Shown here: in pieces, positions 1 through 3,593 of the stretch | How the letters are laid out: each line of letters begins with the position of its first letter | Numbering within the stretch: the stretch's first letter is position 1 | Source: a virus | Lineage: Duplodnaviria; Heunggongvirae; Uroviricota; Caudoviricetes | Reading direction: 5' to 3' (one strand) | IMG/VR virus record: IMGVR_UViG_2737471853_000013 | Coordinates: 1 to 3,593 of that record | DNA length: 3,593 nucleotides | Program-made: the position numbers and the translations under genes | The notes under the pieces: model-generated | The model's database searches: none | Seen by the model: the letters and a program-made list of their open reading frames with translations, nothing else | What the model was told of the DNA's origin: nothing

Positions 1-681
1 ATGACACCGGACATTATCCTGCAGCGTACCGGGATCGACGTGAGAGCTGTCGAACAGGGGGATGATGCATGGCACAAATTACGGCTCGGCGTCATCACCG
101 CTTCAGAAGTTCACAACGTGATAGCAAAGCCCCGCTCAGGAAAGAAGTGGCCTGACATGAAAATGTCCTACTTCCACACCCTGCTGGCTGAGGTTTGCAC
201 CGGTGTGGCTCCGGAAGTTAATGCTAAGGCGCTGGCCTGGGGAAAACAGTACGAGAACGACGCCAGAACCCTGTTTGAATTCACTTCCGGCGTGAATGTT
301 ACTGAATCCCCGATCATCTATCGCGACGAAAGTATGCGCACCGCCTGCTCTCCCGATGGTTTATGCAGTGATGGCAACGGCCTTGAACTGAAATGCCCGT
401 TTACCTCCCGGGATTTCATGAAGTTCCGGCTCGGTGGTTTCGAGGCCATAAAGTCGGCTTACATGGCCCAGGTGCAGTACAGCATGTGGGTGACGCGAAA
501 AGATGCCTGGTACTTTGCCAACTATGACCCGCGTATGAAGCGTGAAGGCCTGCATTATGTCGTGGTTGAGCGGGATGAAAAGTACATAGCGAGTTTTGAC
601 GAGATGGTGCCGGAGTTCATCGAAAAAATGGACGAGGCACTGGCTGAAATTGGTTTTGTATTTGGGGAGCAATGGCGATGA
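1..681 (+). CDS. exo: Lambda-type 5'-3' dsDNA exonuclease (Red-alpha / Exo), 226 aa
   Basis: Full-length ORF starting at window position 1 with ATG. The 226-aa translation matches the phage lambda Exo sequence as I recall it along its whole length ([31 protein letters not shown]...[15 protein letters not shown]), with the same length. The stop overlaps the next start in ATGA, as in lambda. Not confirmed by a search. Confidence 0.95.
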
Positions 682-860
682 CGCATCCTCACGATAATAT
701 CCGGGTAGGCGCGATTACTTTCGTCTACTCCGTTACAAAGCGAGGCTGGGTATTTCCCGGCCTTTCTGTTATCCGAAATCCACTGAAAGCACAGCGGCTG
801 GCTGAGGAGATAAATAATAAACGAGGGGCTGTATGCACAAAGCATCTCCTGTTGAGTTAA
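678..860 (+). CDS. orf60a: Small lambdoid early-region protein, lambda orf60a-like (60 aa from ATG 678; alternative ATG at 672 gives 62 aa)
   Basis: ORF immediately after exo. ATG 678 overlaps the exo TGA stop (ATGA, 4-nt overlap), reproducing the lambda exo/orf60a junction and the 60-aa length as I recall them. No functional knowledge. Confidence 0.7.
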
Positions 861-1024
861 GAACGAGTATCGAGATGGCACATAGCCTCGCTCAAATTGG
901 AGTCAGGTTTGTGCCAATACCAGTAGAAACAGACGAAGAATTTCATACGTTAGCCGCATCCCTTTCACAAAAGCTGGAAATGATGGTGGCGAAAGCAGAA
1001 GCAGATGAGAGAGACCAGGTATGA
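833..1024 (+). CDS. orf63: Small lambdoid early-region protein, lambda orf63-like, 63 aa
   Basis: 192-nt ORF overlapping the previous gene by 28 nt in a different frame. Length and position match lambda orf63 as I recall the lambda map. Acidic C-terminal half (ETDEEFH...KAEADERDQV). Confidence 0.7.
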   Translation: MHKASPVELRTSIEMAHSLAQIGVRFVPIPVETDEEFHTLAASLSQKLEMMVAKAEADERDQV

Positions 1025-1316
1025 CAACCACGGAATGCATTTTTCTGGCAGCGGGCTTCATATTTTGTGTGCTTATGCTTGCCGACATGGGACTTGTTCA
1101 ATGACACCTCAGCAAGAAAACGCCCTTCGCAGCATTGCCCGTCTGGCTAACTCTGAAATCAAAAAAGCCAGACAGCAGTTTCCGGATAAAAACGTCGATG
1201 ACATTTGCCGTAGCGTACTGAAGAAGCACCGCGAAACGGTAACGCTGATGGGATTCACACCGACTCATTTAAGTCTGGCGATCGGCATGTTAAACGGCGT
1301 CTTTAAGGAGCGATGA
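1005..1316 (+). CDS. Small lambdoid early-region protein, orf61-like position; 103 aa from ATG 1005 (in-frame alternative starts at 1035 and 1101)
   Basis: ORF whose ATG at 1005 overlaps the orf63-like stop by 20 nt, the same overlap I recall for lambda orf63/orf61. A GAGAGAGA purine run lies upstream of 1005. The product is longer than lambda's 61 aa, so the start or the C-terminal region is uncertain. Its stop overlaps a strong AAGGAG motif. Confidence 0.55.
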   Translation: MRETRYDNHGMHFSGSGLHILCAYACRHGTCSMTPQQENALRSIARLANSEIKKARQQFPDKNVDDICRSVLKKHRETVTLMGFTPTHLSLAIGMLNGVFKER

Positions 1317-1337
1317 ACATGAAAAGCAAAATCATCA

Positions 1338-1362
1338 GGGAGCTACAGGCTCCTTTTTTATT
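1338..1362 (+). terminator. Intrinsic-terminator-like hairpin (GGAGC / 5-nt loop / GCTCC) followed by TTTTTTATT
   Basis: Seen in sequence: gggagc-tacag-gctcc then a run of six T. It lies inside a 25-codon sORF (1319..1396) and upstream of the TraR-like gene. Confidence 0.45.
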
Positions 1363-1414
1363 GTTCGCATTCACCCTCAAGCGTATTAACCAATAATTCA
1401 GGGATTAATGGAAG

Positions 1415-1636
1415 ATGGCAGACATCATTGATTCAGCATCAGAAATTGAAGAATTACAGCGCAACACAGCAATAAAAATGCGCCGCCTGAACCACCAGGC
1501 TATATCTGCCACTCATTGTTGTGAGTGTGGCGATCCCATAGATGAACGAAGACGCCTGGTCGTTCAGGGTTGTCGGACTTGTGCAAGTTGCCAGGAGGAT
1601 CTGGAGCTTATCAGTAAACAGAGAGGTTCGAAGTGA
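1415..1636 (+). CDS. TraR/DksA-family C4 zinc-finger protein (RNA polymerase secondary-channel regulator family), 73 aa
   Basis: Translation contains the family's C-x2-C ... C-x2-C zinc-finger spacing (CCECGDPIDERRRLVVQGCRTCASC) on a 73-aa scaffold. Lambda carries a 73-aa TraR-like ORF in the same region (my recall). The stop overlaps the next gene's GTG (GTGA). Confidence 0.85.
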   Translation: MADIIDSASEIEELQRNTAIKMRRLNHQAISATHCCECGDPIDERRRLVVQGCRTCASCQEDLELISKQRGSK

Positions 1637-2049
1637 GCGAAATTAACTCTCAGGCACTGCGTGAGGCGGCAGTAGCAATTGAAACAGTAGCAACGCCTCA
1701 AAAATTGCTGGCATTTCGTATGAAAGTCACACCTCAGGTTGTGCTGGCACTGCTGGATGAACGGGAAAGAAACCAGCAATACATCAAACGCCGCGACCAA
1801 GAGAACGAGGATATTGCGTTAACGGTAGGGAAGTTGCGCGTTGAGCTTGAGGCAGAAAAACAGCGGGCAAAGGATCTGTTTATGGAAAATGCTCGGCTTA
1901 AGTCAGGTATAGCCGGTCTGATACACCTCGGTATTCGATATGCAGATGTTGAGGTCATGAGAATTGCTGGAGATGCCCAGCTTTCTACCCCATGCACTGA
2001 CAGCATCATAAACAGCATTGCAACAGGCATTCGCATCAAAGGAGAGTGA
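1633..2049 (+). CDS. ea22: Ea22-like lambdoid early protein, short variant (138 aa), GTG start
   Basis: GTG start at 1633 overlapping the upstream stop, with GAGAGG about 6 nt upstream. The N-terminus (MSEINSQALREAA...LLDERERNQQYIKRRDQENEDIA) and C-terminal ...GIRIKGE resemble lambda Ea22 as I recall it. A predicted coiled-coil-like stretch (LTVGKLRVELEAEKQRAKDLFMENARLK) is present. Shorter than lambda Ea22 (about 182 aa). Confidence 0.65.
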   Translation: MSEINSQALREAAVAIETVATPQKLLAFRMKVTPQVVLALLDERERNQQYIKRRDQENEDIALTVGKLRVELEAEKQRAKDLFMENARLKSGIAGLIHLGIRYADVEVMRIAGDAQLSTPCTDSIINSIATGIRIKGE

Positions 2050-2050
2050 T

Positions 2051-2719
2051 ATGAGCGCTATAACCAAAGAACGTATCAAATTATTCATTAAAAATCCGCT
2101 TGATAACGGACTTACTCGTGGCGAACAAATGGAACTGGCACGAATTGCACTGGCATCACTGGAACGCGAACAGATTCGCCACGAGCATGCCAAATGGTCT
2201 GACTCCACATTTGGCTGCGTTGGCCCCATTGGTCCGCTGAAACATCTCTCAAAAGAGGCACTGGAAGCCGCAGCCGAACCAGACGATCTTAGCGAGTGGG
2301 CTGATATGCAGTTTCTGTTGTGGGATGCACAGCGCCGTGCTGGCATCAGCGATGCTGAAATTACCGCTGCTATGGAAGATAAATTGAAGATCAACATGGA
2401 GCGCCAGTGGCCTGAGCCAAAAGATGGTGAGCCTCGCTTGCACATTAAAGAACCCGGCAACTATCCGGTAACTCCGGATGGTTGGATAAGCTGTAGTGAG
2501 CGAATGCCAGAAATGGGAGAGCGACAATGCTATGTGTTAGCAGCTGACTTTAAAAACAACTACCCACCAAACATCCCCAACACTCAGGTCGGCGTATATG
2601 GCGACTGGTTTAATGATGGCAATCCAACTTGGGATGACGGTGATGGCGAAGACCTGTATCTCAAAGAGGTAACCCACTGGATGCCTCTACCAGAACCGCC
2701 TCGATTAAAGGAGCTATAA
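2051..2719 (+). CDS. Phage accessory protein: N-terminal MazG-like/DUF550-type predicted dATP/dGTP pyrophosphohydrolase domain fused to a C-terminal DUF551 domain (222 aa from ATG 2051)
   Basis: ATG 2051 lies 6 nt after AGGAG (2040..2044) and 1 nt after the Ea22-like stop; the longer track ORF from 2018 has no ribosome-binding site. The N-terminal half has an all-alpha, acidic-residue-rich pattern (HEHAKWSDSTFG...EALEAAAEPDDLSEWADMQFLLWDAQRR...) typical of MazG/DUF550 NTP-PPase-like phage proteins. The C-terminus ends in the DUF551 hallmark ...VTHWMPLPEPP. Domain calls are from memory of the families. Confidence 0.8.
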   Translation: MSAITKERIKLFIKNPLDNGLTRGEQMELARIALASLEREQIRHEHAKWSDSTFGCVGPIGPLKHLSKEALEAAAEPDDLSEWADMQFLLWDAQRRAGISDAEITAAMEDKLKINMERQWPEPKDGEPRLHIKEPGNYPVTPDGWISCSERMPEMGERQCYVLAADFKNNYPPNIPNTQVGVYGDWFNDGNPTWDDGDGEDLYLKEVTHWMPLPEPPRLKEL

Positions 2720-2815
2720 TAGTGAACTATTATATCTATTTGTATTAAAAGAGTTTTTATAAAATAAATCTTCCAAAGCATGTAAAAACACTGTTAATCT
2801 TAACGTGTGTGAAAC
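2720..2815 (+). promoter_or_regulatory. Very AT-rich intergenic region; candidate promoter and/or nucleoid-protein binding region for the downstream moron gene
   Basis: Hand count gives about 21% G+C over 2721..2800, against roughly 50% in flanking genes. It contains several weak sigma70-like hexamers (for example TTGTAT at 2740 and TATAAAAT at 2758) but no pair with convincing spacing, so the exact promoter is not assigned. Confidence 0.3.
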
Positions 2816-2833
2816 GTGAAGAGAGGTGTTGAA

Positions 2834-3115
2834 ATGAGCATTCATGATTTGTGTGAAGATCAAGAGCAATGGGCTATGCAGACCCTTATGGGATCAGGAG
2901 TTCTTGCAAGGTGCAGAATCCATAACGATGTAATTTTAGACAGCGGAAATGATGCTTCTTCTGCTTATAAATTAGGAACTTACCTATATCAAAAAGATAA
3001 TAGCTGCAACTTATTCAATACTCTTACTGAAGCCCGCGACGCAATAAAGGATGCATATGAATCGTATTGTGGGATCGATGATTGCCCACAATGCTCAAAA
3101 TACATTGACGATTAA
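2834..3115 (+). CDS. ea8.5: Ea8.5-like small Cys/His-rich protein (93 aa), low-GC moron gene
   Basis: ATG 2834 is preceded by AGAGGTG (2822..2828) at 5 nt; the GTG at 2816 used by the track is less likely. Size (93 aa) and position between the Ea22 region and xis match lambda ea8.5 as I recall. Cys/His pattern (C..CRIH...C...YCGIDDCPQC) fits a zinc-binding fold. Hand-counted G+C is about 39%. Confidence 0.6.
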   Translation: MSIHDLCEDQEQWAMQTLMGSGVLARCRIHNDVILDSGNDASSAYKLGTYLYQKDNSCNLFNTLTEARDAIKDAYESYCGIDDCPQCSKYIDD

Positions 3116-3135
3116 TAATATGAACAAGTAACTAT

Positions 3136-3160
3136 CCTCGCACTCGCGGGGATTTCTTTT
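3136..3160 (+). terminator. Intrinsic terminator: 6-bp stem (CCTCGC/GCGGGG, one G-U pair), ACTC tetraloop, then ATTTCTTTT
   Basis: Seen in sequence 20 nt after the Ea8.5-like stop: stem 3136..3141 pairs with 3146..3151, followed by a U-rich tract. Confidence 0.5.
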
Positions 3161-3167
3161 ATCTGAA

Positions 3168-3190
3168 CTCGCTACGGCGGGTTTTGTTTT
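3168..3190 (+). terminator. Second hairpin plus U-tract element (CTCGC/GCGGG stem, then TTTTGTTTT); tandem terminator or structured leader
   Basis: Seen in sequence: 3168..3172 pairs with 3177..3181 (one G-U pair), followed by TTTTGTTTT, immediately upstream of the GGAGA ribosome-binding site of the 55-aa sORF. Confidence 0.35.
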
Positions 3191-3203
3191 ATGGAGATGA
3201 TAA

Positions 3204-3371
3204 ATGCACTTCCGAGTCACAGGTGAATGGAATGGAGAACCATTCAACAGAGTTATCGAAGCAGAGGACATCAACGACTGCTATAACCACTGGATGATAT
3301 GGGCGCAGATAGCGCATGCAGACGTAACCAATATTCGAATTGAAGAACTGAAAGAACACCAAGCCGCCTGA
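3204..3371 (+). CDS. Small hypothetical protein, 55 aa (MHFRVTGEWNGEPFNRVIEAEDINDCYNHWMIWAQIAHADVTNIRIEELKEHQAA)
   Basis: Not in the ORF track (below the size cut-off); found by reading. ATG 3204 has GGAGA (3193..3197) 6 nt upstream. The TGA stop lies in the loop of a strong terminator hairpin. Lambda has a similarly sized unnamed ORF between xis and ea8.5 (my recall, uncertain). Confidence 0.5.
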   Translation: MHFRVTGEWNGEPFNRVIEAEDINDCYNHWMIWAQIAHADVTNIRIEELKEHQAA

Positions 3372-3386
3372 TGGCGGTTTTTTATT
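3362..3386 (+). terminator. Intrinsic terminator: 7-bp stem (AGCCGCC/GGCGGTT), TGAT loop, then a T-run
   Basis: Seen in sequence: 3362..3368 pairs with 3373..3379, loop 3369..3372 contains the sORF stop codon, followed by T-rich 3378..3387. Confidence 0.6.
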
Positions 3387-3401
3387 TCCTGGAGAATTAA
3401 G

Positions 3402-3593
3402 ATGACCGATACCAGCCTGATTCCTGAGAAAGAAGTGATGAACAAGCTCGGTGTTTCATCACGTCAGACAATCTGGAACTATACCAAACGGCACGGATTT
3501 CCGAAGCCAGTCAGAACCCACCCCAAATCATACCTTCGTGAGGCTGTTGAAGGGTGGATTCTTAACGGTGGCGTTAATCAGAAATGCTCCTGA
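3402..3593 (+). CDS. xis: AlpA-family excisionase / phage transcriptional regulator (Xis-like), 63 aa
   Basis: ATG 3402 has GGAGA (3391..3395) 6 nt upstream. The translation has the AlpA/Xis winged-helix pattern (LGVSSRQTIWNYTKRHGFPKPV...REAVEGWI) and the expected position at the int-proximal end of the operon. It is not lambda-type Xis. The ORF is complete, with TGA at the window end. Confidence 0.85.
   Translation: MTDTSLIPEKEVMNKLGVSSRQTIWNYTKRHGFPKPVRTHPKSYLREAVEGWILNGGVNQKCS

Follow-up and report, generated by a model that had tools for sequence, protein, structure and literature searches.

The window is the whole stretch of 3,593 nucleotides (nt) that was analysed, positions 1 to 3,593 of the virus record IMGVR_UViG_2737471853_000013. 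It represents the exo-xis region of a lambda-like prophage, and its plus strand runs in the direction of the lambda leftward early (pL) operon. The element in question is a small open reading frame (sORF) that lies directly upstream of orf73 and contains a hairpin followed by a T-run. The TraR-like factor encoded by orf73 reprograms the RNA polymerase of the host, and lambda Orf73 is a functional TraR homologue that inhibits rrnB P1 and raises phage yield (PMC9239242). The exo-xis block is a poorly understood part of lambda that influences lysogeny and the induction of Shiga-toxin phages. The stretch before orf73 is neither empty spacer nor a chance open reading frame (ORF). It holds a doubly coupled mini-gene and a predicted terminator, occurs in about half of complete Escherichia coli genomes, and offers a concrete cis element for asking how expression of orf73 and ea22 is set.

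The sORF and its hairpin in the window

The frame 1319-1396 encodes MKSKIIRELQAPFLLFAFTLKRINQ* (25 codons), and the product has 27 amino acids when read from ATG 1313. All coordinates given for this element in a preliminary description of the DNA were found base for base. The Shine-Dalgarno sequence AAGGAG (Table 1) forms a duplex of -8.4 kcal/mol with the anti-Shine-Dalgarno sequence. The stop codon TGA of the preceding 71-amino-acid gene ends 2 nt before ATG 1319 and overlaps ATG 1313, and the stop codon of the sORF, TAA 1394-1396, is separated by 18 nt from the orf73 start codon at 1415. The hairpin has the arms GGAGC (1339-1343) and GCTCC (1349-1353), followed by T6 (1354-1359) and then ATT. 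In a terminator scan it was reported as an 8-pair stem spanning 1337-1355 with four G-C pairs, a 3-nt loop and the tail TTTTATTGTT; its free energy is -10.2 kcal/mol (ViennaRNA), and the hairpin itself covers sORF codons 7-13.

Within the window alone neither the frame nor the fold is exceptional. The 3.6 kb contain 64 ORFs of at least 20 amino acids, among which the sORF is not beyond chance. The fold of the 126 nt from 1295 to 1420 has a z-score of -1.4, which is not unusual, and the minimum free energy structure retains the terminator hairpin. The terminator scan of the window returned nine terminator-like sites against 3.4 +/- 2.2 in shuffled sequences, which is only moderate enrichment. 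The case for the sORF and the hairpin therefore rests on comparison with other phages.

The idea that the sORF encodes a small membrane protein, which was also raised in the preliminary description, was rejected. The longest uncharged hydrophobic run, APFLLFAFTL, has about 10 residues with E/Q and K/R flanks, which is too short for a membrane helix (about 18 residues needed).

The window carries a private C-to-T change at 1394 (CAA to TAA) through which the last four codons (QFRD) are lost. The frame of the common allele continues through Q-F-R-D to TAA 1406-1408, 6 nt before the ATG of orf73. The end of the frame at TAA 1394 is thus correct for the window, but almost all relatives have CAA there and stop at 1406-1408. 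The two alleles were counted in 5426 complete E. coli genomes with a 41-nt probe able to seed only on the T allele, together with its C version. The T allele was found in five of these genomes; the C allele has 3956 hits in 2652 genomes. Judged by these sequence counts, the window sORF is a rare nonsense allele of a conserved mini-gene of 29-30 codons. The sole promoter-like site found by scan on the plus strand lies at 1370-1397 (TTCACC, 16 nt, AATAAT). Its fifth -10 match is the private T at 1394, and the common AACAAT would miss the scan threshold; the C-to-T change could create or strengthen an orf73 promoter.

Conservation of the frame, the hairpin and the coupling geometry

The frame, the peptide, the hairpin and the coupling geometry of the sORF are conserved among related phages. 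Comparison loci were collected around TraR-like genes in genome and viral collections, and further loci were anchored on the sORF sequence. The scan of genome contigs returned mostly lambda DNA contaminating unrelated assemblies, and about 10 loci were informative. The sequences L004-L039 are 98-100% identical to lambda and stand on short, low-coverage contigs in assemblies of Shewanella, Bradyrhizobium, Streptomyces, Paenibacillus, Helicobacter and others; they are almost certainly laboratory lambda DNA contaminating those assemblies.

Homologues of the sORF were identified in 202 distinct contexts, which comprise 193 open frames of 29-39 codons, seven long forms and two startless forms. The conserved start codon corresponds to ATG 1319, and upstream of it the sequences of different phages are unrelated. 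ATG 1319 was also the start preferred in the preliminary description, and it is invariant in lambda-like relatives; ATG 1313 is replaced by GTG or GTT in many relatives. The AAGGAG of the window reads AAGGAA in most close lambda-like relatives, and distant relatives have an entirely different sequence upstream of the sORF start. The peptide of the lambda clade is MKSKIIRELQAPFLLFAFTLKRINQQFRD, and that of a diverged clade, deposited from Enterobacter genomes, is MKALITRSL(S/K)RPFLLLAFTFNRINRQFREH. Variants with a longer N-terminus (32 and 39 amino acids) stay in frame.

Several measures point to selection on the encoded peptide. In the C-terminal 14 codons the entropy at the three codon positions is 3.41/1.49/6.47. 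The ratio of synonymous to non-synonymous differences among distinct codons is 24:25 in the sORF frame; the two alternative frames give 16:32 and 8:38. Over the last 18 codons the ratio of non-synonymous to synonymous divergence (dN/dS) between clades is 0.1-0.3, and dN is 0.13 compared with 0.35 for the adjacent TraR-like gene. Codons 2-6 show no signal of coding selection and vary freely; they behave as a spacer of which the length is kept. The sORF is a genuine, conserved frame that is almost certainly translated. A stop or frameshift in the frame with the hairpin kept, which the preliminary description had named as evidence against a functional sORF, was found in about three cases among more than 100 distinct sequences: L090 (nonsense at codon 4), L166 (ATG changed to ATA) and the window allele itself (shared with L003), which is cut after the hairpin. 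The peptide was not matched by any family in Pfam or PHROGs. By exact-sequence look-up it is present in several records of phages and bacteria under the name "hypothetical protein", and a full-text literature search with the peptide sequence returned no paper.

The hairpin and T-run are likewise a conserved terminator-like element, and they lie inside the sORF frame, as the preliminary description had held. Among 56 distinct versions of the 39-nt segment, 51 fold at -7 to -12 kcal/mol with the T-run directly after the stem. Random synonymous recodings average -2 to -4 kcal/mol, and the observed value was mostly reached in at most 3% of trials. Three versions of the stem occur (GGAGC/GCUCC, GGUCGC/GCGGCC and GGGAC/GUCCC). 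Pairs were counted per stem class, and the 3' arm shifts register by one base between classes; within each class 96-98% of the cells are paired, and the outer pair swaps between GC, GU and AU. At the protein level two combinations of unlike residues covary at codons 8 and 11, E with A and S with R (42:42), exactly as pairing requires, which indicates that RNA structure and not the peptide rules at these codons. Conservation of base pairing rests on the differences between classes and on the recoding control. A run of four to six T residues directly follows the stem in every relative with the hairpin and is part of a longer T-rich tail; the U-tract is written onto the conserved P-F-L-L motif through codon choice. 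As a natural case of codon choice building a terminator into coding sequence, the element would be a clean example. No Rfam family was found at the hairpin site at E values up to 1. Identity of the hairpin with the lambda terminator tL3 is ruled out by the position of the latter (Table 1). Pairing of the orf73 ribosome-binding site (RBS; CGGGAGC) with the 3' arm of the terminator was considered as a switch and rejected, stem class B being unable to form it.

The sORF is coupled to its neighbours at both ends. In 136 of the 193 short forms its start forms an ATGA or GTGA overlap with the stop codon of an upstream ORF that has 45 codons or more, and in a further 42, the window included, the upstream stop lies 2 nt before the ATG. 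At the other end, the stop codon in the family either overlaps the next ATG or precedes it by 1-6 nt; the truncated allele of the window leaves a gap of 18 nt. The motif (C/A)GGGAG, which is the RBS of the next gene, is conserved in every clade, 9-10 nt ahead of the next ATG, and one lambda imm21 record annotates an RBS at the position of 1400-1404. In the sORF-anchored scan, which covered 98 contexts, a TraR-like gene lies directly downstream in 64 and within 520 nt in 20, and none occurs within 1.5 kb in 14. Other genes stand between the sORF and the TraR-like gene in L161, L182, L183, L224, L040 and others. Such inserted genes, for example a 61-codon ORF (MKRTSIALAVMA...) and one beginning MSFEYIN, start 2 nt after the sORF stop or overlap it, and the 3' end of the sORF thus appears to be a general docking point for the next gene.

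The distance between the start and the hairpin is also kept. The sORF start lies 33 nt before the Pro codon, equivalent to 18 nt before the hairpin, in 179 of the 193 short forms and is never closer. Lambda-type phages have AAAAGCAAAATCATC as these 18 nt and the other clade has AAGGCACTAATCACC, both without a U-run. With established footprint sizes, a ribosome on the upstream stop codon or on the sORF start codon would end just short of a hairpin at this spacing, as is ordinary for a terminator at the end of a gene.

Origin, earlier descriptions and neighbouring genes

The sORF shares sequence with the 3' end of the orf61 family (phrog_303), a family of unknown function. The 71-amino-acid protein encoded upstream of the sORF matches phrog_303 with an E value of 8e-35, and 74-amino-acid proteins, the 74-codon genes of which directly precede TraR-like genes in Citrobacter and Pseudocitrobacter phages, also match this family. 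In a BLASTP comparison the sORF peptide aligned with residues 51-74 of a 74-amino-acid phrog_303 protein at 54% identity (E 2e-9). This alignment over 24 residues marks the sORF as a stand-alone, 5'-truncated copy of the orf61/phrog_303 C-terminal 24 residues. A search of the 29- and 30-amino-acid sORF peptides against PHROGs with hmmscan, phrog_303 included, gave nothing. The sORF lacks the N-terminal 50 or so residues of the family, and the profile is blind to it; it is a fragment homologue of phrog_303 and not a member. In lambda-like phages the full-length phrog_303 gene and the sORF fragment occur in tandem, and elsewhere the fragment follows unrelated genes such as methyltransferases or an HNH-type ORF. 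Mosaic junctions lie at or just before the sORF start (about window position 1281 in L023, L098, L114, L116 and L135). In phages of the L041 type a full-length gene of the family occupies the position of the sORF directly before the TraR-like gene and carries the hairpin at the same relative position.

In reference lambda an extra A (A7 instead of A6, at about window position 1160) splits the 71-codon phrog_303 gene (lambda 30839-31024, "orf61"). The A6 version is present in the window and 79 other loci, and A7 occurs only in 21 sequences resembling the lambda reference. The annotated lambda orf61 starts upstream, in a frame that crosses the 27-codon ORF listed in Table 1. Reference lambda orf61 would seem to be a frameshift allele, with consequences for the reading of published orf61 mutants.

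The hairpin is the same as terminator t2, which was predicted in lambda and phi24B by Bloch et al. in 2014 (PMC4195576). Their Table 4 gives t2 as AAAATCATCAGGGAGCT-ACA-GGCTCCTTTTTTATTATT and places it between orf61 and orf73 on the basis of an ARNold/RNAmotif prediction (PMC4195576). It differs from the window by one base of the tail (TTG in the window, TTA in Bloch et al.). The terminator was treated as intergenic, its position in a translated conserved ORF was not noted, and two phages only were covered. An overlapping promoter, p1, was predicted by BPROM with the -35 sequence TCATCA and the -10 sequence TTTTATTAT (PMC4195576). The mRNA levels of orf73, ea22 and ea8.5 were below those of the upstream ORFs in lambda and not in phi24B (PMC4195576).

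The frame itself also has a probable precedent. According to the relevant passage of a review (PMC8614690), ribosome profiling (Liu et al. 2013) added orf2311 (7 amino acids) and orf2313 (31 amino acids) to the conserved block. The lambda version of the sORF is MNMKSKIIRELQAPFLLFAFTLKRINQQFRD, which is encoded at lambda 30715-30620 on the complementary strand and has 31 amino acids (29 at 30709-30620 when read from the conserved second ATG). The conserved exo-ea22 block has no other ORF of 31 amino acids on the pL strand. The lambda sORF is very probably orf2313, given the length and location reported in that passage, and the window copy is four codons shorter at the C-terminus. A 7-codon ORF at 1198-1221 (ATG ACA TTT GCC GTA GCG TAC TGA, MTFAVAY) lies in another frame inside the 71-codon gene, about 100 nt upstream. 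It would fit the 7-amino-acid orf2311 and its numbering as cited there. The statement that neither feature is annotated in lambda, made in the preliminary description, holds for NC_001416 and for RefSeq E. coli genomes, but not for the literature, which contains both t2 (PMC4195576) and orf2313 (PMC8614690). Both the ORF and the terminator are already described for lambda, and apart from the idea of gating the gain is incremental. New here are the family-wide conservation, the homology to a phrog_303 fragment, the overprinting of the terminator on coding sequence and the double start/stop coupling.

The genes of the window from exo to the ea22-like gene are listed in Table 1 together with the local features of the sORF. 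Several accessory genes follow 3' of the ea22-like gene, and the excisionase gene stands at the 3' end of the window. Bases 1000-1677 are 97% identical to lambda 30352-31029 and likewise to many Shiga toxin (Stx)-converting phages, and a nearly identical prophage (99.7%) adjoins torS in E. coli strain 100181. The RefSeq annotation of the near-identical genome contains the 71-amino-acid gene as WP_000188857.1 and labels the counterpart of the ea22-like gene an incomplete pseudogene. The ea22-like gene has 138 codons in the window versus 182 in lambda, and its middle and C-terminal parts differ.

The 27-codon ORF between orf63 and the 71-amino-acid gene encodes MTTTECIFLAAGFIFCVLMLADMGLVQ and has ATGA overlaps at both ends. 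It is without annotation in lambda and RefSeq, and more than 100 loci have it almost unchanged. In L048 a diverged homologue (MSTGECIALVIAFVACVFLSSKLGLLQ) stands immediately before a TraR-like gene. As a candidate small membrane protein this ORF is more plausible than the sORF. At the far end of the window, three more terminator-like hairpins (3134-3184 and 3361-3380) flank a 55-codon ORF (3204-3371). This ORF and its hairpins lie just upstream of the excisionase gene in a moron-like arrangement.

Table 1. Positions of genes and sequence features from exo to the ea22-like gene in the window
Feature	Position	Strand	Remark
exo	1-681	+	
orf60a	678-860	+	tL3 at 742-764 inside
orf63	833-1024	+	
27-codon hydrophobic ORF	1021-1104	+	
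71-amino-acid orf61-family gene (phrog_303)	1101-1316	+	stop TGA 1314-1316
Shine-Dalgarno sequence AAGGAG of the sORF	1305-1310	+	8 nt before ATG 1319, within the last codons of the 71-amino-acid gene
sORF	1319-1396	+	between the 71-codon gene and orf73
Intrinsic-terminator-like hairpin and U-tract	1337-1362	+	stem 1337-1344 with 1348-1355; sORF codons 7-15 (RELQAPFLL)
Weak Shine-Dalgarno sequence AGGGA for orf73	1400-1404	+	in the last codons (F-R-D/E) of the full-length sORF
orf73, TraR/DksA-like C4 zinc-finger gene	1415-1636	+	follows the sORF
ea22-like gene	1633-2049	+	138 codons

Competing explanations and likeness to known systems

The explanation preferred here, with moderate confidence, sees in the sORF a bridge ORF, coupled by translation to its neighbours, on which an ordinary, N-overridable terminator is overprinted. 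Polymerase without N would terminate at the hairpin, which would insulate the TraR-like gene, ea22, xis and int from upstream transcription. The hairpin would start one ribosome half-footprint past the upstream stop or the sORF start, and a ribosome parked there would leave folding free. On read-through transcripts made by N-modified polymerase, ribosomes would re-initiate at the sORF AUG and unwind the hairpin. The same ribosomes would then terminate on the weak RBS of orf73, and translation of orf73 would be coupled to that of the upstream genes. Termination, its suppression by N and the effect of coupling are the proposed steps of this scheme; the conserved C-terminal peptide may act in its own right as well.

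Several observations weigh against this explanation. The drop measured in lambda by reverse transcription-quantitative PCR is the sole experimental support for termination, and phi24B, with an identical sequence, shows no such drop (PMC4195576). Polymerase coming from pL is already N-modified, which puts the target of the terminator in doubt. One clade of long forms (the L042 type) has neither the hairpin nor the T-run, and its gene order is unchanged; these relatives retain P-F-T-L with other codons. Covariation within the stem classes is statistically weak (51/500 and 5/500 shuffles reach the observed score). The dS of the sORF is lower than that of the TraR-like gene, which shows nucleotide-level constraint or recent spread that inflates the apparent conservation of the peptide. 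The equation of the sORF with orf2313 depends, as said above, on length and location.

The preliminary description had suggested that translation controls termination. In a translation-gated terminator of the pyrBI/pyrE type, a ribosome close behind the polymerase would block the hairpin and so gate transcription of the TraR-like gene. This is considered possible but unlikely. It would suit the position of the hairpin, which in each of the three stem classes falls within a conserved translated frame and in the L041 type within a 74-codon gene. The sORF start is fed by ribosomes terminating upstream (the ATGA overlap), and hence a ribosome would already be on the RNA. The condition- and phage-dependent expression of orf73 and ea22 despite an identical t2 (PMC4195576) also calls for a modulating input, and gating, if true, could explain the phage- and inducer-dependent expression that was left unexplained by Bloch et al. 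(PMC4195576). Transcription of the TraR-like gene would then report the current translational capacity of the cell. Since the TraR-like product shuts down rRNA promoters, such gating would form a feedback loop between ribosome supply and host takeover. Specific support for this control is lacking, however. The stretch between the start and the hairpin contains no U-rich pause tract (it is A-rich in lambda-type phages and variable elsewhere), and its length of 18 nt favours folding. No antiterminator pairing is conserved, because the upstream sequence is mosaic and non-homologous between phages. By footprint sizes, a re-initiating ribosome would have to move at least two codons before the polymerase covers about 25 nt. 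The model has no need of the purifying selection on the peptide past the hairpin, and tL3 lies inside orf60a without any such role known. What stands of the preliminary interpretation is a real, almost certainly translated frame with a conserved terminator-like element within it; the proposals of gating and of a membrane peptide are not supported.

An unlikely alternative makes a micro-protein the selected product, for example a mimic or competitor of the C-terminal segment of the orf61 family, and treats the hairpin as secondary or incidental. The low dN/dS over the last 18 codons, with dN below that of the TraR-like gene, would agree with it, as would the 31-amino-acid lambda product of ribosome profiling in the review passage cited above (PMC8614690). 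The motif PF-L-F...IN.QFRE is present in full-length phrog_303 proteins despite other codons and the absence of a hairpin (L042 type). The window allele, however, lacks the last four conserved residues, and a few relatives have a lost start or an early stop. Codons 8 and 11 switch between unlike residues following base pairing, the last three codons double as the RBS of the next gene, and the product has no Pfam or PHROG family, known partner or phenotype. It is improbable that the sORF is a functionless remnant or recombination linker. It would then be what is left of the 3' end of an orf61-family allele since replaced, kept as a short sequence in common at a module boundary used by lambdoid phages for recombination. 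Mosaic junctions at or just upstream of its start, upstream genes of many unrelated kinds, and the tandem of full-length gene and fragment in lambda-type phages would be expected of such a remnant. Neutral decay would be expected as well, yet 193 of 202 contexts are open with a start at a fixed position, variation falls mainly at third codon positions, and the stability of the hairpin is maintained through different stem sequences. Very improbable is the view that the T-rich element is chiefly a promoter of orf73 (p1 of Bloch et al.) and not a terminator. The BPROM prediction of p1 overlaps the hairpin, and in phi24B orf73 and ea22 were expressed above the upstream ORFs after H2O2 treatment (PMC4195576), but p1 is not called in a sigma-70 scan of the window. 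TCATCA lies about 21 nt from the best -10-like hexamer in the window, and the -35 region coincides with variable N-terminal codons and with stems that differ between clades.

Among known systems, attenuators of the trp/his type are not resembled by the sORF: no mutually exclusive structures (the upstream sequence being non-homologous), no regulatory codon run and no repeated codon were found. In the pyrBI and rph-pyrE attenuators a leader or upstream ORF runs over or next to a terminator, and a following ribosome blocks the hairpin directly. These systems depend on UTP-sensitive pausing at U-tracts, which lets the ribosome catch up. The sORF likewise overlaps a terminator-like hairpin and has no alternative RNA structure, but its region contains no U-tract for pausing and has no known regulatory signal. 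A further related element is tL3, which was reportedly characterised as an intrinsic terminator by Luk and Szybalski, with termination shown experimentally. It is read through by N-modified polymerase. The terminator tL3 belongs to the same pL operon and is equivalent to t1 of Bloch et al. Its stem, with 9 pairs and -14.1 kcal/mol in their table (PMC4195576), is longer and stronger than that of t2, which is only predicted. Like the hairpin of the sORF, tL3 lies inside a small translated ORF, orf60a, which indicates that the overlap of terminator and ORF is normal in this compact region.

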